From contig OZ024761.1 in assembly GCA_964016885.1 (NCBI GenBank), positions 5,456,001 to 5,520,000 on the forward strand: a DNA stretch of 64,000 nt, read 5' to 3'. The translations under genes and the position numbers were made by a program. Numbering within the stretch: the first letter of the stretch is position 1; each line of letters starts with the position of its first letter. Shown here piece by piece: positions 1 through 55,291 of the stretch. This DNA comes from Eledone cirrhosa (Eukaryota). The notes below the pieces were generated by a model, which worked only from the letters and a program-made list of their open reading frames with translations, ran no database searches and was not told the DNA's origin.

Positions 1-756
1 AAGGGCCATAACTCTGCGCTGCAAAGCATGGTGTCTGACACTCTACCGATTCCTCCAAGCCACCAGTGCCGTCTATAATGACGCCAATAGTGTTGATTGT
101 ATTTCATATTGGGTGGTCAGGGTTGGTATGTCATATATACCAGGATTACTGAATATATGAACTGTCATAGAAACTGGGGAATTTTAATAAGTTACTGGTT
201 TGCATAAGAGAAACCCTATAGTTTATGTAAATTAGTAACACACGGAAGAGATTCAAGTCAAGAATGATATTTTAGGAATTTATTTCTAGGACGTAATTCC
301 ATAAATGGTCAGTGTGTGTGTGTGTGTATATATATGTGTGTGTGTGTGTGTATATGCGTCTGTGTGTGTATATATATATATATATATGTGTGTGGGTATG
401 TGTATGTGTGTTTGTGTATATGTGTGTGTGTATAGATATGTGTATGTGTATATATAATATATATATATATTATGTGTGTGTGTACTTATGCGTGTATGTG
501 TATATATATGTATGTGTATGTATATGCGTCTGTCTGTATGTATAGATGTGTGTATATGCGTGTGTGTGTGTGTGAGTGTGTATATGTGTGTGTGTGTGTG
601 AGTGTGTATATGTGTGTTTGTGTATATGTGTGTGTGTGTGTATGTGCGTCCATATATCTGAATCTGTGTGTACATGTATTTTTTCCATTATTTTAATTCA
701 GCCTCACTTTCATTTTTAATAGATTTTCATTTCAAATCTTATATCCATAACATAAC

Positions 757-830
757 TATTTCATCTGATGAGCGTACTGGACATTTCTGTCAGGATCGTC
801 TAGTTTCCTGAAACCTTTGGTAATGGAATA
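757..830 (+). ncRNA. Type I hammerhead ribozyme motif (family H2)
   Basis: Stem I TATTTCAT/ATGGAATA, CTGATGA at 765-771, stem II containing ACTGGAC/GTCTAGT, GAAA at 810-813, stem III CC-TTT-GG, GUA cleavage triplet. Confidence 0.7.
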
Positions 831-1048
831 ATTATATTGTGTTGTTTATTATGTAATTAAATAGCTCTGTATTATATATAGAGCACTCTTCTTTCCTTTA
901 CCTTTTCTACTGAAATATAACACACACACACAAATATATATATATATATATATATATACAAATGAATATATGGATAAAACACTAATACAAGTATATAAGT
1001 GTTTGTATTGCAAATGACCAAGTTAGCTAGAGTGGGTAATAGGAAAAT

Positions 1049-1781: not shown

Positions 1782-1784
<3 letters not shown>

Positions 1785-2366
1785 TTGAAGATTACAAGTA
1801 TCTTGGCTCATATATCTCCTCCTCCAAAAAAGATTTTCTAACCAGGAAGGGTATGGCATGGTCAGCGTGCAATGACATGCACGCCATATGGACATCTCAA
1901 CTTACCAACAAGCTAAAACTGGAAATATTCCAAGCAACCATTAAGCCCATATTACTTTATGGATCCGAAACTTGGACACTAACATCACAACTTGAGAGGA
2001 GATTGGATGGCACATATACCCACCTCTTAATGAGAGTGCAAAACCTATCCTGGAAACGACATCCCACCTTGTCTAAAATCTATGGCAAACTCCCTCGAGC
2101 CTCTGCCTTTCTAAAAATCCCGGAGAGCTCAATTTGCTGGCCACTGTCACCGTGCCAGCAATGAAATCATATCCGCTCTCTTGCTCTGGAACCCTGACTC
2201 CAGCCTGACTAGGAGTAGGAAGCTGTCATTCCCTGACGTTATCTCTAGGGATACGGGAATCAGTAGACAGGACCTGGGGGCAGCGATGGGGGGACAGGGA
2301 ATTCTGGGGCATGAGAGTGAGATCCATCATCTCGACAGTAGTCGACGAGTGATGAGTGATGATGAT
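1782..2366 (+). mobile_element. 5'-truncated RTE-like LINE, reverse transcriptase C-terminus (frameshifted)
   Basis: Translates as VEDYKYLGSYI..RKGMAWSAC..PILLYGSETWTLT..RRLDGTY and, after a frameshift, RRAQFAGHCHR; ends in a GAT-repeat tail. Confidence 0.85.
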
Positions 2367-2455
2367 ATATATATATATATATATATTGAATTAATGAAAC
2401 GTAATCTTGGTATGTTTATATACATTTTTTCTTCTAACTTTAATTTTATACCTAA

Positions 2456-5195: not shown

Positions 5196-6192
5196 GGTAC
5201 TCCGTCGGTTACGACGACGAGTGTTCCAGTTGATCCGATCAATGGAACAGCCTGCTTGTGAAATTAACGTGCAAGTGGCTGAGCATTCCACAGACACACA
5301 TACCCTTTACGTAGTTCTCAGGGAGATTCAGTGTGACACACAGTGACAAGGCTGTCCCTTCGAATTACAGGTACCACTTATTTTTGCCAGCTGAGTGGAC
5401 TGGAGCAACGTGAAATAAAGTGTCTTGTTCAAGGACACAGGGGACTGGAGCAACGTGAAATAAAGTGTCTTGCTGAAGGACACAGTGGACTGGAGCAACG
5501 TGAAATAAAGTGACTTGCTGAAGGACACAGTGGACTGGAGCAACGTGAAATAAAGTGTCTTGCTGAAGGACACAGTGTACTGGAGCAACGTGAAATAAAG
5601 TGTCTTGCTCAAGGATGCAGTGGACTGGAGCAACGTGAAATAAAGTATCTTGCTCAAGGACACAGTGGATTGGAACAACGTGAAATAAAGTGTCTTGCTC
5701 AAGGACACAGTGGACTGGAGCAACGTGAAATAAAGTGTCTTGCTGAAGGTCACAGTGGATTGGAACAACGTGAAATAAAGTGTCTTGCTCAAGGACACAG
5801 TGGACTGGAGCAACGTGAAATAAAGTGTCTTGCTGAAGGACACAGTGTACTGGAGCAACGTGAAATAAAGTGTCTTGCTCAAGGATGCAGTTGACTGGAG
5901 CAACGTGAAATAAAGTGTCTTGCTCAAGGACACAGTGGATTGGAACAACATGAAATAAAGTGTCTTGCTCAAGGATACAGTGGACCGGAGAAACGTGAGA
6001 TTTAGTGCCTTGCTGAAGGACACAGTGGACTGGAGCAATGTGAGATAAAATGTCTTGCTGAAGGACACAGTGGACTGGAGCAACGTGAAATAAAATGTCT
6101 TGCTGAAGGACACCACGTGCCACCAGGAATTGAACTCAAGACCTTATTGTTGTGAGCCGAATACCCTAACCACAAAGCCACGCCCCTTCACA
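5196..6192 (-). mobile_element. tRNA-derived SINE with CORE-like central domain, internally expanded
   Basis: Minus-strand A box TGGCTTTGTGG and B box GAGTTCAATTCC, followed by a CCTTGAGCAAGACACTT-type central motif that resembles the MIR/CORE consensus. Confidence 0.8.
5394..6112. repeat. 45-bp tandem array (~16 copies) of the SINE central domain
   Basis: Unit GTGGACTGGAGCAACGTGAAATAAAGTGTCTTGCTCAAGGACACA. Confidence 0.95.
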
Positions 6193-10405: not shown

Positions 10406-10757
10406 GGTTGTCTCCCGGTATTCGCGGGGGTTAGGCTCCAAGAGCACCCGCGAATAGTAAAAAAAAAAAAAAAAAATCGCGAATACTGGACGTGGTGCAT
10501 AAAAATGCCTATAAACATCAAAATATGACGTAAAATATAATAAAAAAAAGAGGGGCATCCAATAGAGAGGCAAATACGGTATATCGTTGTTAATAATTTA
10601 GTGTTAAAAAATATATATTGCCACGAAAAAAGCCATAAAAAATCGCGGATGATATTTCCGATTCCGCGAATATGTGGTGGTTTCTGCGAATAATTATTAG
10701 TTAGGTTCTAAGGAAAATCCGCAAATAACTAGGACCGCGAATGTCGTGGGTACACTG
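10406..10757 (+). mobile_element. Tigger/pogo-like MITE
   Basis: Homologous to 15882-16239; right end CGAATGTCGTGGGTACACTG followed by TA. Confidence 0.65.
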
Positions 10758-10840
10758 TATGTATGTATATATATATATATATGAGATGTTACTAGTTAAA
10801 ACCAGAACATCCATTATTCAATTAATACTTAGGAGTGTAA

Positions 10841-15881: not shown

Positions 15882-16239
15882 CAGTTGTCCCCCAGTATTC
15901 GCGGGGCTTACGTTCCCACAGCAACCGCCAAGAGTGAACAATCGCGAATACTGGACGTGGTCTATAAAAATGCCTATAAACATCAAAACATAACGTAAAA
16001 TATAATAAAAAAAAAAAAGAGGAGCGTCTTATGCGAAGGGGCGTCCAATAGGCCGGCAAATACGGTATATTGTTATTAATTTAACGTTAAAAATATATAT
16101 TGCCACGAAAAATATCATAGAATATCGCGGAAGATATTTACGATTCCGCGAATATGCGGTGGTTTCCACGCACGATTATTAGTTAGGGTCTAGGGAAAAT
16201 TCCGCGAATAACCGGGACGGCGAATGTCGAGGTACGCTG
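15882..16239 (+). mobile_element. Tigger/pogo-like MITE, full length
   Basis: TA-CAGTTGTCCCCCAGTATTCGCG ... GCGAATGTCGAGGTACGCTG-TA: imperfect TIR with TA target duplication; three copies in the window. Confidence 0.7.
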
Positions 16240-16331
16240 TATATAATTGCACACACATAAATATATACACACATACAAGAATATAGACACAAATACAAAT
16301 ATATATACATACAAATATATACATACACACA

Positions 16332-20317: not shown

Positions 20318-20320
<3 letters not shown>

Positions 20321-20432
20321 AAAAAGTATGACCCCGACGGCAGAGCTCAAGCCGTTTCAACGGCTATTTCTGGACCAGAAATAGCCGTCGAAACAGCTTG
20401 AGCTCTGCCGTCGGGGTCATACTTTTTCCTAT
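20318..20432. repeat. Fold-back of the H5 hammerhead 3' half
   Basis: AGGAAAAAGTATGACCCCGACGGCAGAGCTCAAGCCGTTTC..CTGG followed by its reverse complement with two mismatches. Confidence 0.85.
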
Positions 20433-20441
20433 TTCCCACTC

Positions 20442-20652: not shown

Positions 20653-20706
20653 TGCGTACATAGAGCACTCTCTTTTCCTGTACCTTTCCTACGGAAATAC
20701 TTCATT

Positions 20707-20741
<35 letters not shown>

Positions 20742-20877
20742 AAATGAAGTATTTCCGTAGGAAAGGTACAGGAAAAGAGAGTGCTCTATGTACGCTACAG
20801 AGCTTATTAGTTACGTAATAACTAATAAACCACATAAGATAATTATTTCATTTACCAGTGGTTTACCATGTTATTTA

Positions 20878-20935
20878 TTCATTCTGACGACTGAAGACAG
20901 ATATGAATACCTTCAAGAAACCACTGGTAAATGAA
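20878..20935 (+). ncRNA. Type I hammerhead ribozyme motif (family H2)
   Basis: TTCATT-CTGACGA-C-TGAAG..CTTCA-A-GAAA-CC(ACT)GG-TA-AATGAA; perfect 6-bp stem I and GUA triplet. Confidence 0.72.
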
Positions 20936-21329
20936 ATAATTATCTTATGTTGTTTATTACATAACTAAATATAAATAAATAAATAAATATATGTGTGTGT
21001 GTGTGTGTGTAATTGGAAGAGGCTATGTAGCCGGTATGAGTGTCAGACACACTCAGTTGCGGCATACACACACATCCACAGGTAAATATATAAACAGACA
21101 CAGGCAAGAGAAGGGCAAACCCACACACCTTATACATATTCATAAATAGACACATTATAAAAATAATTATTACATATACACACATCTATGTAATGATTGA
21201 GGAAGGAAGGGGCTGGTGAAACACTGTAGCGAATGTGTGTTGCGCCCGTTTTCGGTTTACCGGCTACATAGCCTATATATATATATAGTGTGTGTATATA
21301 TATATATATATAGTGTGTGTGTATATATA

Positions 21330-21372: not shown

Positions 21373-21466
21373 CTGTTTCTACTTTTGGCACAAGGCCAGC
21401 AATTACCCAGTGTATTACTGGTACTAGCCTATATATATATATAGTGTGTGTATATATATATATATA

Positions 21467-21514
<48 letters not shown>

Positions 21515-22109
21515 CTGTTTCTACTTTTGGCACAAGGCCAGCAATTACCCCAGTGTATTACTGGTACTTTATTTTATCGACCCCGTGAAGATTATATATA
21601 TATAGTGTGTGTATATATATATAGTGTGTGTATATATATGTGTGTGTATATATATATATATATACATATAACTGTTTCTACTTTTGGCACAAGGCCAGCA
21701 ATTACCCCAGTGTATTACTGGTACTTTATTTTATCGACCCCGTGAAGATTATATATATATAGTGTGTGTATATATATATAGTGTGTGTATATATATGTGT
21801 GTGTATATATATATATATATACATATAACTGTTTCTACTTTTGGCACAAGGCCAGCAATTACCCCAGTGTATTACTGGTACTTTATTTTATCGACCCCGT
21901 GAAGATTATATATATATAGTGTGTGTATATATATATAGTGTGTGTATATATATGTGTGTGTATATATATATATATATACATATAACTGTTTCTACTTTTG
22001 GCACAAGGCCAGCAATTACCCCAGTGTATTACTGGTACTTTATTTTATCGACCCCGTGAAGATTATATATATATAGTGTGTGTATATATATATAGTGTGT
22101 GTATATATA

Positions 22110-22150
<41 letters not shown>

Positions 22151-22880
22151 CTGTTTCTACTTTTGGCACAAGGCCAGCAATTACCCCAGTGTATTACTGG
22201 TACTTTATTTTATCGACCCCGTGAAGATTATATATATATAGTGTGTGTATATATATATAGTGTGTGTATATATATGTGTGTGTATATATATATATATATA
22301 TACATATAACTGTTTCTACTTTTGGCACAAGGCCAGCAATTACCCCAGTGTATTACTGGTACTTTATTTTATCGACCCCGTGAAGATTATATATATATAG
22401 TGTGTGTATATATATATAGTGTGTGTATATATATGTGTGTGTATATATATATATATATATACATATAACTGTTTCTACTTTTGGCACAAGGCCAGCAATT
22501 ACTCCAGTGTATTACTGGTACTTTATTTTATCGACCCCGTGAAGATTATATATATATAGTGTGTGTATATATATATAGTGTGTGTATATATATGTGTGTG
22601 TATATATATATATATATACATATAACTGTTTCTACTTTTGGCACAAGGCCAGCAATTACCCCAGTGTATTACTGGTACTTTATTTTATCGACCCCGTGAA
22701 GATTATATATATATAGTGTGTGTATATATATATAGTGTGTGTATATATATGTGTGTGTATATATATATATATACATATAACTGTTTCTACTTTTGGCACA
22801 AGGCCAGCAATTACCCCAGTGTATTACTGGTACTTTATTTTATCGACCCCGTGAAGATGAAAGGCAAAGTCAACCTCTGC
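21370..22880. repeat. ~157-bp tandem array (~10 copies) of SINE 3' tail plus TA/TG microsatellite
   Basis: AACTGTTTCTACTTTTGGCACAAGGCCAGCAATTACCCCAGTGTATTACTGGTACTTTATTTTATCGACCCCGTGAAGAT recurs with a 157-163 bp period. Confidence 0.95.
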
Positions 22881-23030: not shown

Positions 23031-23153
23031 CATCTATATTAAAACTATATATATATATATATATATTTAGAAAGTGAACCGCTCTGTTTGATACATAGAG
23101 TATTCTTTTTTCCTTTGCTTTTTCTTCGGAAATACTTAACATATATATGTATG

Positions 23154-26060: not shown

Positions 26061-26112
<52 letters not shown>

Positions 26113-26243
26113 AGAAGTTATATTTAATTTGTTGGGATACAACAAGCAAAATATTTTTATAACTGATATAAAGCACTCAACAAATTATTGGAGTAAAAAT
26201 ACAATATATTAACAAATGGAAACTATATTTATAAAACCATATT

Positions 26244-26308
26244 TATTTCATTATACATATTTCAAGGACACCAAGTCAAATTATGGTGCGCTTTCATCAG
26301 ATAAAATA
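26244..26308 (-). ncRNA. Minimal type I hammerhead motif (family H1)
   Basis: Minus strand TATTTTAT-CTGATGA-AAGCGCACCA..TGGTGTCCTT-GAAA-T(ATGT)A-TA-ATGAAATA. Confidence 0.75.
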
Positions 26309-26386
26309 TAATATAGATCAGTTTTATAAATAAATATTGACATACCCTTAAAGAATGCAACCATTTCTGTTGGAAGCTCCCGGATA

Positions 26387-26429
<43 letters not shown>

Positions 26430-27452: not shown

Positions 27453-27724
27453 TTATACATTAAATTTAGCTCTGGTACTTATATAGAGCACTCTTCACTC
27501 CTATGACTTTTTCAATTTCCAACGGAAACTTCAATACTTATATATATTATTCAAAATATTAACAAATGAAGATATTCACATCTTTAAGAGATGAAGAAAT
27601 CCCGAAGAACTCCATCATCTATTAGTAATCTATTGCAGAAGAAGCGCTCAACCTTTAGGGAGCTAAATATGACCAAAGATTAATTTGGTTCATTGAGTAA
27701 TAAATGAACCAAATTAATCTTTGG

Positions 27725-27771
<47 letters not shown>

Positions 27772-27891
27772 GTTATGTAATAAACAACATAAGATAATTA
27801 TTTCATTTACCAGTGGTTTCTTGAAAGCAAACAAATAAGCTCTGTAACCTACATAGAGCACTCTTTTTTCCTGGACCTTTCCGACTTCATT

Positions 27892-30547: not shown

Positions 30548-30839
30548 GTTTATGCAAACTGTTTAGGTGAAATGAACCCGCAGTATATTACTGGTTTAAT
30601 TGACAGAGCAATTTAACGATTTGAAGTGAACACCGACACTGTCACCAGACACAGACAGACTAGGACAACATCAGAAATCATCAGATGACATAAGCGACCA
30701 TCAGACATGATATCATCAGTCATAAACAGAGGGAGATAATTTCATAAACATGAGGGAGATAATTTCATTAGGCAACATAAGACATGACAACTTCGTCAGA
30801 CAATTTCAATTTCGTCAAACAATATGAAATAGTACTCAC

Positions 30840-31111
30840 CTAAATGTTAGGTTGGTCTTCTCCCAATGGGAACTAGATATAATGAAACGTTTCTTCCTAG
30901 CATTTTCCCAGAAAGCCACCGGTAAAGTATCTTTGTTCCCGCATCTCGGCTTGTCCATCCATTCTATGGTCCGATGGTCAAGCCGTCCAGTCACGGGTAA
31001 ATTAGCAAACGCCTGGAATCTGCGTATTGCTTTCACCTGGGTTTCTTCACTCATCAAATTCTCTGTTTCTAAGCTTGGACCACTAACGTAGCCAAACTCA
31101 ATCAGATATTT
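30840..31111 (-). CDS. Internal exon of a matrix metalloproteinase (M10A): pro-domain, cysteine switch, furin site, start of catalytic domain
   Basis: Polypyrimidine tract TTCTTTTCTCTTTTGTAG acceptor (phase 0) and AG|GTGAGT donor (phase 2). 272 nt encode KYLIEFGYV..AIRRFQAFANLPVTGRLDHRTIEWMDKPRCGNKD..RKKRF..WEKTNLTF(R). Boundaries match the usual MMP exon 2 (KYL..LTYR). Confidence 0.95.
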
Positions 31112-31680: not shown

Positions 31681-32307
31681 TATATATATATATATATATA
31701 TAAATGGAAAAGAATGAAACGAAATTTCATTTCTCATTCTTAGTACGGCTGGTACTTAAATGTAAGTATGTATACGTACATACATATATGTATACAGACG
31801 TACAGTAGTATGTATATATATACATACATGCACACATATATATATATGTACGTATGGGTTTACCGAACATTTATTGTAATGCTCGGTTTGTTTGTAAACA
31901 AACAGCCCGAATTACGCCGTACAGTGTTCAGGCAACCATCGTCACCTTTTTGTTCAACACTGACACAGGAACGATGTACTAGTTTCAAGCTCATTAGCTA
32001 TCGTCAGCATCGTGTAGCTTTCTGTCAGATGGTTGAACGTCTATACTTCGTTTTTGAATTTGTTTTGCAAGATTTGCACACAATACACAAAAACAAGATC
32101 GTGTAGGACAGAAATAGAGGAGAGACACAAAATAAGAAATCAGTCACTGAGGAGGTCACAGAATGTGTGACGAAAGAGCTTTGACAATATATAAACAACC
32201 ATCCGGTTAATGAACCAATCAATCGGAAATCTATAATTAATTGATGTGAAAACCAACGGGTGGGTGTGTTTTAATGGCAGCATGACTCTTCCAAAGTATA
32301 ACAATAT

Positions 32308-32603
32308 ATCTAAAGTCTAAAGTCTGTCTTAAGCCAGAAGGCTCATTTGGCCGGTGCTTATCCCGGTTTCATGGCGTGAAGCGACTGAGAGCCCAGGACC
32401 CCCCCCCCTGGACAAGACGCCAGTCCATCGCAGGGTTAAACCTCCAGCTATTGCTGGTACTCATTTTCAGTTGAGTAAACTGGAGCAACGTGAAATAAAG
32501 TGTCTTGCTCAAGGAGACAACACATCACCCGGTCCGAGAATTGAACTCACAACCTTTCGATTGCAAGCCTAATGCTCTAACCACTAAGCCATGCGCCTTC
32601 ACA
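32308..32603 (-). mobile_element. tRNA-derived SINE, CORE-like domain plus V-domain-like segment and (AGACTTT)n tail
   Basis: Head nearly identical to the 47327 SINE, then CCCTGCGATGGACTGGCGTCTTGTCCAGGGG and AGACTTTAGACTTTAG. Confidence 0.75.
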
Positions 32604-32935
32604 TAACAATATACATATATAACGAAGGAGTTGTGGTAAGGAACCAGATGGACCATAACGCACCAGAGTACTCAATACTTAGGGTAGTAGAGTGGGTAAT
32701 AGGAAAATGTATGACCCCGACAGCAGAGCTCAAGCCGTTTCAGGTATAGGTGAAGGTACCCATTTATGTGTGTTGTATTGAAGCGAATAACTATGTGTCT
32801 ACTCTGGGAGTTTATTTAACTTTACCTATTGAGTACACTGAGATGCAACCGGTCCTAACGGTGAAACCCATGCTAGTTCCGTCAACTTATTACTTCTGGC
32901 AACATTATTACAACAATATGACCTTCCTCAAGTAT

Positions 32936-33585: not shown

Positions 33586-33638
<53 letters not shown>

Positions 33639-33680
33639 ATATTAAATAAATGATGGAAACTATATTTATAAAACTATATT

Positions 33681-33742
33681 TATTCTATTATATATATTTC
33701 AAGGGTACCAACAATTTTGGTATGCCTTCATCAGATAAAATA
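33681..33742 (-). ncRNA. Minimal type I hammerhead motif (family H1)
   Basis: TATTTTAT-CTGATGA-AGGCATACCA..TGGTACCCTT-GAAA-TATATA-TA-ATAGAATA. Confidence 0.75.
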
Positions 33743-33883
33743 CAAAATGTTTTATAAATATTTGACATGACCAAGGATGATATACCTTAACGGTTCAAGT
33801 TATCCCTGGAAAAATCTGTCGAGTGCTTTGAATCAGTTGTAAACATCTATATTTGTTGGATTTCCAACAAATTAAATATCCCT

Positions 33884-33933
<50 letters not shown>

Positions 33934-40755: not shown

Positions 40756-41301
40756 GGAAAAATTTGAACAGGAACAAAACAGAGAGGCAGTACAACGAAT
40801 GTTTATTAATTTCACGCTCTGGAGAGTGGGGTGGTGGTGGGGAACTACGTTTCAGGCATAAGCCCTTCCTCGGGTGAGAAGTGTGTGGGAACAGAGTTCA
40901 AAGGGTGTGTAGGGGAGTGGTGGAGAGACATATATATATATATATTTAAAGGTTAAACAAGGTTCAATGAATAAATTAATGAGTAAAGTTTTACAATAAA
41001 TTAAATTATTATTTAATTCCCCTAACAGTTATGTAGGTTTATATTATATTAGTAGTTGTTTATTATTATGTATCTTTATAAATAAAGTACCAGTTATGTA
41101 CTGGGTTATTGATGGCCTTGTGCCTAAAGTAGAAGCAATTATGTATCTTTATAAGCTTTCTCACACGCACCCTCTGTATTATATGTAATGTTTTCATGTC
41201 TCAATCTTAAGGTATATAAATATTGAGTTTTGTCCTATCTTATTCACTGCGATGACTGAATATTAACCATCTACTTAGTCAAGGTATGTCAAGCATCGTC
41301 T

Positions 41302-41368
41302 TATTTTATCTGATGAGGACGTACTTTTGAAGTTAGCTCAGTACCTCTGAAATATGTATAATAAAATA
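41302..41368 (+). ncRNA. Minimal type I hammerhead motif (family H1)
   Basis: TATTTTAT-CTGATGA-GGACGTACT..AGTACCTCT-GAAA-T(ATGT)A-TA-ATAAAATA; perfect 8-bp stem I. Confidence 0.78.
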
Positions 41369-41445
41369 TACTTGATCACACGAATGTCTATATTTGTTAA
41401 TATTTTGAATTAATATATATATATATATATAATATATATATATAT

Positions 41446-45625: not shown

Positions 45626-46140
45626 CTAGCTGAGGTACCCGGTAATACCCGGGAGCGGGGATATTTCCAGTTCCCATTAACATATCCAATGCCTCTCAGA
45701 CCAAAAATGAAATCAAAATATAGGACAGATAATGAAAAGCGAAGAGAAATTCATTTACGAAACAATAATACAAATAAATATTGTTGATTGCATTGGTCAG
45801 GTGAAACAATGTTTGTCAGAGAAGTTGAGTGTTGCTATAAGGAGAAACATAGAACCCCCATTAGGGTGTCTTAATGTAATTAAAATTTGCTGAAAGTTTA
45901 TGACTAGGCATCATATCTTGTCATTTAACTATGGCTTAAATTTCATATAAATCGAAGGGAAAAAATGTTCAGCGTGGGTTTGAGGCCCCGGGGAACCCTT
46001 TAATTAAAATAAAATATACGTAAGAAATCAAATGGGCATGAGCCCCACACAGGTGTGACGTTTCATCAAGACCGGTTTGGTAGTTTTTGAGTTTTAGGTT
46101 CAGAAACAAACAGACAGAAATTGCCATTTATGTATGTAGA
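45626..46140 (-). mobile_element. Non-autonomous Helitron (family B), full length
   Basis: Minus strand A|TCTACATACATAAATGGC ... CCCGGGTATTACCGGG hairpin, then CTAG|T. Confidence 0.85.
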
Positions 46141-46186
46141 TATACAAATATACATGCATACAGATACACACACACACACACGCACA

Positions 46187-46261
<75 letters not shown>

Positions 46262-46431
46262 GCGCGCTTCATACACTGATTGATCTAGTGTGTTGAATCA
46301 ATGTAATATTTGTTATTAATAGTGAATGTTTATTTGGAGGTTTTGCGGAAGTAAATAACTTATCAAAACAGTTGTGGTGAATGGCTTAACTAGCGCCAAA
46401 CCAGCGAGTAAACATTCACTTTAATACCATC

Positions 46432-46522
<91 letters not shown>

Positions 46523-46650
46523 AAAGTTTTATTTAAAATTGTTGGGATACAACAAGTAAATATTTTATAACTGATATAAAGCACTCGACAAGTTTTTGGA
46601 GTAGATATACGATATTAAATAAATGGAAACTATATTTATAAAACCATATT

Positions 46651-46715
46651 TATTTCATTATACATATTTCAGGGATACCAAATTAAAATACGGCATGCCT
46701 TCGTCAGATAAAATA
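46651..46715 (-). ncRNA. Minimal type I hammerhead motif (family H1)
   Basis: TATTTTAT-CTGACGA-AGGCATGCCG..TGGTATCCCT-GAAA-TATGTA-TA-ATGAAATA. Confidence 0.75.
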
Positions 46716-46940
46716 CAATATATAAACAGTTTTATAAATAATTTTGACGTACCCTATTATAAGCGACCATTATTTTTGGAAGCTTATATATATATATATA
46801 AGCAAAGGTATATTTAATTTGTTGGTAATTCAACACACATACATATATATTTATAACAGATTCGAAGCACTCGACAAGTTTTCTGGAGTATAATATCAAT
46901 GATATTAAATAAATGGAAACTATCTTTATAAAACCATATT

Positions 46941-47001
46941 TATTCTATTATATATATTTCAAGGGTACCACAACTTTGGTACGTTCTCATCAGATAAAAT
47001 A
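46941..47001 (-). ncRNA. Minimal type I hammerhead motif (family H1)
   Basis: TATTTTAT-CTGATGA-GAACGTACCA..TGGTACCCTT-GAAA-TATATA-TA-ATAGAATA. Confidence 0.72.
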
Positions 47002-47326
47002 TAAAGTTTGTTTTATAAATATTGACATATCCAGGAATGAGACCTTAACGGTTTAAGTTTCACCTGGATATATAGTTATATATATAGTTACGTAATAAAC
47101 AACAGTCAATTTCCTAAAACTGTAGAGTGCTCAACTTATCGGGCTGGAAGATGCCAATCACATATGAGATATAGAATATGCTTCGATCATTCCCGGTGGG
47201 AGGTGTATAAATGAAGTATTTCCGTAGGAAAGGTAAAGGAAAAGAGAGTGCTCTATGTAGGCTACAGAGCTTTAGGAAATTCCTTTACCTTTCCTACGGA
47301 AATACTTCAAATATATATATATATAT

Positions 47327-47666
47327 GGAGGCACATGGCTTAGTGGTTAGAGCATTGGCCTTGCAATCGAAAGGTTGTGAGTTCAATTCTCAGACCGGGT
47401 GATGTGTTGTTTCCTTGAGCAAGACACTTTATTTCACATTGCTCCAGTTTACTCAGCTGTAGAAATGAGATGATAGGGACTGGGGTCCCTATCATTCCAC
47501 TGCAAAGTGGTCGTGGAGGTGCCACGGCAAAAAGCACCCAGCACTCACTGTAAATGAGGTTGGTGTTAGGAAGGGCATCCAGCTGTAGAAATCAAACCAG
47601 AATCAGTTCCCGTCCCACCCTTGCAAGCAGGGAAAAGTGGACGTAAAATGAAATGATGATGATGAT
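47327..47666 (+). mobile_element. Young tRNA-derived SINE with CORE-like domain and RTE-type (GAT)n tail
   Basis: A box TGGCTTAGTGG, B box GAGTTCAATTCT, CCTTGAGCAAGACACTT, tail GGTGTTAGGAAGGGCATCCAGCTGTAGAAA..(GAT)n; near-identical copy at 49185-49524. Confidence 0.88.
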
Positions 47667-48067: not shown

Positions 48068-48103
<36 letters not shown>

Positions 48104-48211
48104 AGATCAAAAGATGGTTAAACGAGTTCCAAGTGAAGTTTTAAATCAACATATGTTGATTTAAAACTTCACTATTCACAAGTGTTTTTTAACCTTCATA
48201 TCATGTATCTC

Positions 48212-48282
48212 TATTTTATCTGATGAAAACGCAGATGTCATCTCATGATGATATTTGTTTTTGAAATGCGCATAATAAAATA
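48212..48282 (+). ncRNA. Minimal type I hammerhead motif (family H1) with palindromic helix III
   Basis: TATTTTAT-CTGATGA-AAACGCAGATGTCATC(TCAT)GATGATATTTGTTTTT-GAAA-TGCGCA-TA-ATAAAATA. Confidence 0.82.
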
Positions 48283-48403
48283 CTTGGAACTCTTTTAACC
48301 ATCTTTTGATCTTATATTATTTATACTCCAGTCCTACAAACTGTAGAGTGCTACTTATCCGATATTTGCATTGCTCTATTGTACTACAATAAAACTCACC
48401 TCC

Positions 48404-48472
<69 letters not shown>

Positions 48473-48547
48473 CGGAGGAAATGTGGTAAGGAACCAGGTG
48501 GACGATAACGCACCAAAGTACTCAATACTTAGGGTAGTAGAGTGGGT

Positions 48548-48658
48548 AATAGGAACGAGTAGGACCCCGACGGCTGAGCTCAAGCCGTTTCGGTCCAGAA
48601 TTAGCCCAGAATTAGCCGTCGAAACGGCTTGAGCTCAGCCGTCGGGGTCCTACTCGTT

Positions 48659-48664
<6 letters not shown>
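48548..48664. repeat. Fold-back of the H5 hammerhead 3' half
   Basis: ATAGGAACGAGTAGGACCCCGACGGCTGAGCTCAAGCCGTTTCG and its exact reverse complement. Confidence 0.85.
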
Positions 48665-53633: not shown

Positions 53634-53697
<64 letters not shown>

Positions 53698-53755
53698 AAG
53701 GCTCTGATACCATCAACACTATAAACACAGAGCTGGCATATCTAAGAACTGACTA

Positions 53756-53811
53756 ACTGCCTGATGAGGTCATAGCCATTCAATGGCTATCATCGAAATA
53801 TATATAGCAGT
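53756..53811 (+). ncRNA. Minimal type I hammerhead motif (family H6)
   Basis: ACTGC-CTGATGA-GGTCATAGCCAT(TCA)ATGGCTATCATC-GAAA-TATATA-TA-GCAGT, followed by AATAAA; canonical G10.1-C11.1 pair. Confidence 0.85.
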
Positions 53812-53854
53812 AAATAAAGGATTATGAGTTCATGCAATTGACTTATGTTTCGTC

Positions 53855-53910
<56 letters not shown>

Positions 53911-54119
53911 TAATAAACGAAAGATATATACTTTATATCATCTCTATTTATTTCATTATATATTTTTCGAAGATATAAAGTACTATATATATGTGTGTGT
54001 GTATGAAAAGATTCAGGACCCCCGACGGCTGAGATCTTTCCATATTACCCACTCTACTACCACAAGTATCGAGCACTCTGGTGAGTTATGGTCCACCTGA
54101 TATTTTATCACACCCAATA

Positions 54120-54945: not shown

Positions 54946-54992
<47 letters not shown>

Positions 54993-54993
<1 letters not shown>

Positions 54994-55291
54994 TATTCGT
55001 GGAATTTTCCTTAGAACCTAGCTAATAATTGTTCGTGGAAACCACCCCATATTCGCGGAATCGTAAATATCTTCCGCGATTTTTTAATGGCTTTTTTCGT
55101 GGCAATATATATATATATATATTTTCATGCTTTTTAACACTAAATTATTAATAACAATAAACCGTATTTGTTGGCCTATATTTTACGTTGTGTTTTAACG
55201 TTTATAGACATTTTTATGGACCCCGTCCACTATTCGCGGTATTTTAACTCTTCGCGGGTGCTCTAGCAACGTGAATACTGGCGGACAACTG
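54993..55291 (-). mobile_element. Tigger/pogo-like MITE, partial
   Basis: Reverse complement of 15882-16239; plus strand ends GGACAACTG-TA. Confidence 0.65.

Follow-up and report, generated by a model that had tools for sequence, protein, structure and literature searches.

Two neighbouring hammerhead motifs in Eledone cirrhosa are probably separate Penelope-type insertions into one TA microsatellite

The locus described here raises the question of whether two hammerhead motifs lying head to tail on the minus strand of a 64,000-nt stretch of E. cirrhosa DNA (the window) form a retrozyme-like, circle-producing arrangement, as an initial annotation proposed, or two independent insertions, which it named as the alternative. 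The cores, coordinates and 290-nt distance given for the two diverged type I units were correct. The retrozyme reading was not supported, since the units split between subfamilies, a tandem-repeat search with retrozyme settings did not call the pair and the loops are common to the family; independent insertion was the better supported of the two. From the sequence comparisons below, we consider it probable that two short hammerhead repeats of different subfamilies were inserted separately into one TA microsatellite, either as pseudo-LTR ends of Penelope-like elements (PLEs) or as non-autonomous copies moved by PLEs.

Type I hammerhead cores were found on the minus strand at 46993 (CUGAUGA) and 46707 (CUGACGA); each of them carries GAAA and U16.1-A17 together with a stem I of 8 bp. 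The N17 positions, 46949 and 46659, agreed with the cleavage sites already predicted (46949/46948 and 46659/46658) and place the cuts 290 nt apart. Beyond stem I, each motif has an internal loop followed by a further 11–12 bp of pairing. Stem II comprises about ten positions in each motif with a C-C mismatch at position four, and helix III consists of 2 bp capped by a near-palindromic loop. Folded alone, the motifs reached −8.1 and −9.6 kcal/mol in folds other than the active one, and both energies passed the −5 kcal/mol cut-off described by Li et al. (10.64898/2026.07.22.740005).

Eight motifs were retained in the window after the scan, while a ninth at 32147 (4-bp stem I, no palindromic loop) was discarded as likely chance. 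Seven motifs in the window had eight or more base pairs in stem I, and none did in any of 200 local shuffles. In an alignment of four family copies, 97.6% of the structure cells were paired, compared with 41–53% in slid controls. Three of nine stem II pairs were changed on both sides, a number also reached by 50 of 500 column shuffles; covariation supports the structure weakly, because there were only four sequences and the column shuffle was not beaten. At the gathering score, Rfam returned one match for the window, a tRNA-like SINE, and no hammerhead; for 46000–47600 at E ≤ 10 it returned 29 matches, none of them a hammerhead. The miRNA-like matches near the pair were microsatellites and an inverted repeat. 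A strict pattern scan recovered the motif from no metagenome contig and no viral contig, and the seven metagenome contigs matching a loose pattern all lacked stem I pairing on inspection and were attributed to chance. Judged by core and pairing, both are real hammerhead-ribozyme motifs with predicted cleavage.

Table 1. Coordinates of the paired units, their surroundings and related copies in the window
Feature	Position	Strand	Remarks
Hammerhead 1	46941–47001	−	Type I, minimal helix III, loop UAUAUA, closing pair G10.1-U11.1
Hammerhead 2	46651–46715	−	Type I, minimal helix III, loop UAUGUA, closing pair A10.1-U11.1
Unit U1 (subfamily 1)	46802–47068	−	5′ hairpin, segment A to about 46893, tail B 46890–46802
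5′ hairpin of U1	47025–47073	−	−18.1 kcal/mol, z −4.9
(TA)8 spacer	46785–46800		Likely shared target tract
Unit U2 (subfamily 2)	46520–46784	−	5′ hairpin, segment A to 46605, tail B 46603–46520
(TA)42 tract	46435–46519		After U2
Other-family fragment beside U1	47075–47203	−	Inverted tail-like piece, then short end and TA repeats; limits approximate
Inverted tail pair of third family (hammerhead element at 765)	47206–47315		Flanked by (TA)8 at 47311–47326
Solo subfamily 2 copy (A and B)	about 26110–26400	−	Between (TA)n tracts
Solo subfamily 1 copy	33624–33884	−	Inverted B (33811–33884), then A, then (TA)n; no 3′ tail
More distant relative	41155–41410	+	Hammerhead at 41310, no tail B, (TA)n end; 5′ limit approximate

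Each motif lies in a unit of about 270 bp composed of a 5′ hairpin, a segment A containing the hammerhead and a segment B of about 85 nt, with TA repeats at the borders (Table 1). Tail pieces of two more hammerhead-bearing families, with cores at 765 and 48220, lie directly upstream of U1, and positions 47112–47140 within the adjoining fragment match the tail of the 48220 element. With these fragments of other families upstream of U1, the locus consists of several short insertions clustered together. The animal DNA of the window is rich in microsatellites; the 290-nt period has a GC content of 25%, and Pfam gave no match in three frames over the pair.

The 48220 element (48091–48405, plus strand) has the loop UGCGCA, a tail of about 80 nt between (TA)n tracts and a 44-bp inverted terminal copy (repeat 48091–48134/48282–48325); by analogy with described elements, it is a compact PLE-type inverted insertion. 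The family with its core at 765 was found at 665–917 (plus), 20657–20959, 23081–23134, 27459–27886 and 47206–47315, and its tail of about 60 nt often stands alone, inverted or head to head. A GAGTGCT/AGCACTC motif is common to the tails of three families in either orientation (approximately 46870, 46585, 48345, 47125 and 47255), possibly as a common endonuclease or priming signal. A fourth hammerhead family at 53695–53857 (plus, core 53761) has a canonical G-C closing pair, the loop UAUAUA and two flanking (TA)n tracts. Another family, flanked by TA and with inverted repeats inside its copies, occupies 975–1124, 20319–20441, 32640–32741, 48490–48660 and 54035–54099; its copy near 1100 (minus) contains a CUGAAGA...GAAA core-like sequence that the motif scans rejected. 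The window also contains a dispersed repeat of about 400 bp whose reading frame has decayed and for which Pfam gave no match (10407–10782, 15884–16266, 54992–55264) and a frameshifted fragment at 1784–2453 (plus) with a weak DUF6451 match, which presumably resembles the end of an RTE-type LINE protein. Heads of tRNA-derived SINEs matching Rfam tRNA were found at 32534–32591 (minus) and 47336–47393 (plus), and SINE fragments formed tandem arrays of 45 bp (5394–6113) and 157 bp (21432–22858).

The relationship of the two units to the solo copies informs the question of their origin. As had been noted, the units differ and are separated by (TA)n: segment A of U1 and U2 is identical at 125 of 167 positions (75%), and differences appear already in the first 6 nt following the cut. 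Each unit has a closer match in a solo copy at another place in the window, U1 in the 33.7-kb copy (33624–33810; 151/171, 88%) and U2 in the 26.3-kb copy (26115–26378; 151/180, 84%). Among 24 informative sites in A, 19 grouped U1 with the 33.7-kb copy and U2 with the 26.3-kb copy, one joined U1 and U2, and four favoured the third tree; the corresponding counts in B were six, two and one. Because each unit is nearer to a solo copy than to its neighbour, the alignments place U1 and U2 in two different subfamilies and not in a dimer of one monomer.

This result bears directly on the reading as a non-LTR retrozyme dimer, in which a single monomer, doubled by rolling-circle reverse transcription or by a local duplication, would have given two copies that have since diverged. 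Each unit does have a complete type I hammerhead, the period shows no protein match, and its 290 nt and 25% GC lie within the size and GC range of PMC7229834; the earlier statement that 290 nt fits the size of metazoan non-LTR retrozyme monomers was borne out, these being 170–400 nt long, low in GC and non-coding. At lenient settings, TRF also reported a period of 290 with 2.1 copies, 73% matches and 12% indels. Against a dimer, the neighbour should be the closest relative, yet a single site in A joined the pair; moreover, the pair was not reported by TRF at the retrozyme-defining settings given in 10.64898/2026.07.22.740005 (2 7 7 or 2 5 7). The putative circle showed no clear excess of self-pairing, with 62% of positions paired compared with 61% in 100 shuffles (z −1.7). 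Because tandem repetition of one monomer was looked for and not found, we did not class the pair as a retrozyme.

Among the four close copies, seven of eight termini lay within 25 nt of a (TA)n tract of at least four repeats, a proximity shared by 14% of background positions. Tail B was present, absent or inverted among copies, and the 33.7-kb copy had it inverted at the 5′ end and lacked it at the 3′ end; B was inverted and not permuted there, which ruled out circular permutation of A and B. A 5′ hairpin opened all four close copies, with z values of −2.5, −2.1 and −1.8 in the three other than U1, and three of the four began 75–77 nt upstream of the core. At the copy starts (47025–47073, 46758–46788, 26340–26395 and 33775–33810), the hairpin was found in four of four although the subfamilies are only 60–65% alike there. 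The shared hairpin may halt reverse transcriptase or mark a defined 5′ terminus.

Public reads were searched with the family at a likeness of at least 80% in four of the 11 runs listed. In the RAD run X9, 39,955 of 12,467,656 reads matched the family, a depth not used as a measure of copy number in view of RAD bias and subfamily divergence, and 74% of them continued into unlike sequence. Two end classes were seen: 6,347 reads departed where A ends, running into (TA)n, and 3,763 departed close to where B ends, with mixed flanks (agreement 0.34). A strand switch at varied 5′ points was present in six of the 15 joints listed, besides which there were a further 40 joints, 920 loose ends and 12,186 pieces. 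The family was also found in reads of organism B, and it is abundant and dispersed. An X4 contig of 853 nt (depth 105.6) reached 746 nt past the 5′ side of segment A, hinting at a longer parent element. Against a retrozyme dimer, no joint among the 15 listed ran from the end of a unit to a unit start, and the spacer was bridged by none of the 24 pieces listed. Against separate insertion, an empty or one-unit allele of the locus was not seen among the read joints and pieces listed. Several skips of about 290–308 nt, one of them at 46655–46948, are expected from copies that are U1-like in one part and U2-like in another, and the 46655–46948 skip might still be a deletion form.

Separate PLE-type insertion accommodates these observations, because TA-bounded ends, a variable or inverted tail and the stacking of other families at the same spot correspond to the PLE architecture described in the literature. 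In the mechanism suggested by that literature, a GIY-YIG endonuclease would nick (TA)n, and reverse transcription would begin at the 3′ end of the element and stop early, often near the 5′ hairpin, leaving an end of about 270 bp with a tail on one side. As TA flanks would persist after each insertion, the same tract could be struck again, and the two units would have entered a single TA tract at different times. The 290-nt spacing would then be one unit length plus the spacer, and the palindromic loop III would likely serve dimeric cleavage in the parent element. No reverse transcriptase or GIY-YIG domain was matched by Pfam in the 290 longest of the 364 high-complexity reading-frame segments of the window; the tie to an autonomous PLE is therefore one of architecture only, and membership is likely but putative. 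The length of the tail speaks against a PLE, as does the lack of two traits typical of PLE minimal hammerheads, the G10.1-C11.1 pair and an additional base following position 9. In addition, the start points and 5′ hairpins are more regular than random truncation would lead one to expect, and the shared hairpin and similar starts would also fit a defined non-autonomous element.

The strongest competitor of separate insertion is a single event in which a PLE reverse transcriptase copied the RNA of one subfamily and switched to another, leaving a mixed partial tandem. Partial tandems and insertion beside earlier copies are reported for PLEs (PMC6765202; PMC8969392), and U1 and U2 share their orientation across the short (TA)8 spacer. 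Each unit nevertheless owns a tail and TA flanks, as the solo copies do, and the same cluster contains fragments of other families, so we regard template switching as unlikely.

A different possibility concerns present function: whatever its origin, the pair could now act as a double hammerhead and cut a chimeric RNA or circle of 290 nt out of an intronic or read-through transcript. The loop III sequences UAUAUA and UAUGUA had been said to cross-pair, and they can do so in a duplex of 8 bp (−3.2 kcal/mol), although the U1 self-duplex is equally stable. A nested double hammerhead is feasible on paper: both stems I are kept, swapped between the intact cores around the 8-bp helix III, and its predicted stability exceeds that of two single hammerheads by 8.6 kcal/mol. 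Relative to the free ensemble it is 8.4 kcal/mol less favourable at 37°C (8.7 at 20°C), and the loop III cross-pair probability is at most 0.005, a low occupancy that is not decisive because the folding model omits tertiary contacts. The geometry claimed for the double hammerhead thus held. Since one or other of the two loops occurs in six of the eight retained motifs and the self-duplex is as stable, cross-pairing does not mark these two as partners. We consider the double form possible and predict it to be rare. Both motifs have non-canonical 10.1-11.1 pairs, PLE minimal hammerheads are described as cleaving weakly even as dimers (PMC4209133), and one of nine Xenopus hammerhead dimers is reported to have cleaved in vitro (10.64898/2026.07.22.740005). 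A contig of run X1 that skips 46655–46948, with 23 letters on its short side, would fit such release, but a copy of a third subfamily, matched at 80% likeness, accounts for it just as well.

The possible source transcript is a matrix metalloproteinase gene. An exon at 30839–31111 (minus), 84% identical to Octopus sinensis matrix metalloproteinase-2, encodes a peptidoglycan-binding-like domain with the PRCG cysteine switch and starts with a splice acceptor; the pair lies on the same strand, 15–16 kb upstream of it. No other metalloproteinase exon was found in the 64 kb, including upstream, and the remaining protein had no match in the window. A single exon in 64 kb implies very long introns, and the pair may lie in sense orientation in a long first intron; with no upstream exon found in the window, this intronic position is only putative. 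Taken together, active double-hammerhead release is very improbable. The same low probability applies to the broader model in which TA-targeted pile-ups would pair hammerheads of different subfamilies by chance and interchangeable palindromic loops would let a chimeric 290-nt circle be cut from the metalloproteinase intron. If true, this would be the birth of a retrozyme without any tandem duplication, and if the pair cleaves, it would offer a cheap test case for the origin of retrozymes from PLE ends. A retrozyme dimer is equally improbable, being largely refuted already by the subfamily split in the alignments.

Among known systems, the units resemble the metazoan PLE pseudo-LTR hammerheads of Cervera & De la Peña (2014, PMC4209133), described as single motifs with a long helix II and a palindromic loop 3. 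They share the type I core, the long helix II, the minimal 2-bp helix III with its palindromic loop, and the occurrence of many variable families, mostly as single motifs in truncated copies with some close pairs. They differ from that account in helix I (8 bp plus 11–12 bp here, 4–5 bp reported), in the closing pair (A-U or G-U in place of the usual G10.1-C11.1), in having no extra base after position 9 and, by the window scan, in having no linked ORF. PLE insertions are further described as partial tandems and inverted 5′-truncated copies with a one-sided tail and a (TA)n bias (10.1101/2021.04.23.441226; PMC8557442). The EN+ PLEs of Craig et al. (2021, PMC8557442) share with the present elements the inverted truncated copies and one-end tail, seen here in the 33.7-kb and 48.2-kb copies, the two read end classes and the strand-switch joints, as well as the (TA)n targets; the tail is about 85 nt here and 30–40 bp there. 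Because the (TA)n-targeting Naiads in that account are without hammerheads, the parent would more probably be of the Neptune or Hydra type.

Metazoan non-LTR retrozymes, as described by Cervera & de la Peña (2020, PMC7229834) and Li, Clavereau & Pollet (2026, 10.64898/2026.07.22.740005), are alike in being non-coding, low in GC and of about 300-bp period, with a type I hammerhead per unit and a PLE connection. In contrast, the present units belong to different subfamilies, have a microsatellite between them, occur mainly solo and fall outside the published definition by tandem repeats. The main text of the latter study samples no mollusc. For cephalopods, 235 hammerhead matches are reported from the giant squid (PMC6962438) and 31 recently active PLE families from Octopus vulgaris (PMC13282606); our literature search found no cephalopod account of such a family, which the supplements of PMC4209133 and PMC13282606 may already contain. 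As most likely read, the hammerhead-bearing ends of PLEs, already a known class, gain an abundant octopod family; the case also warns that two hammerheads about 300 nt apart are insufficient to call a retrozyme.
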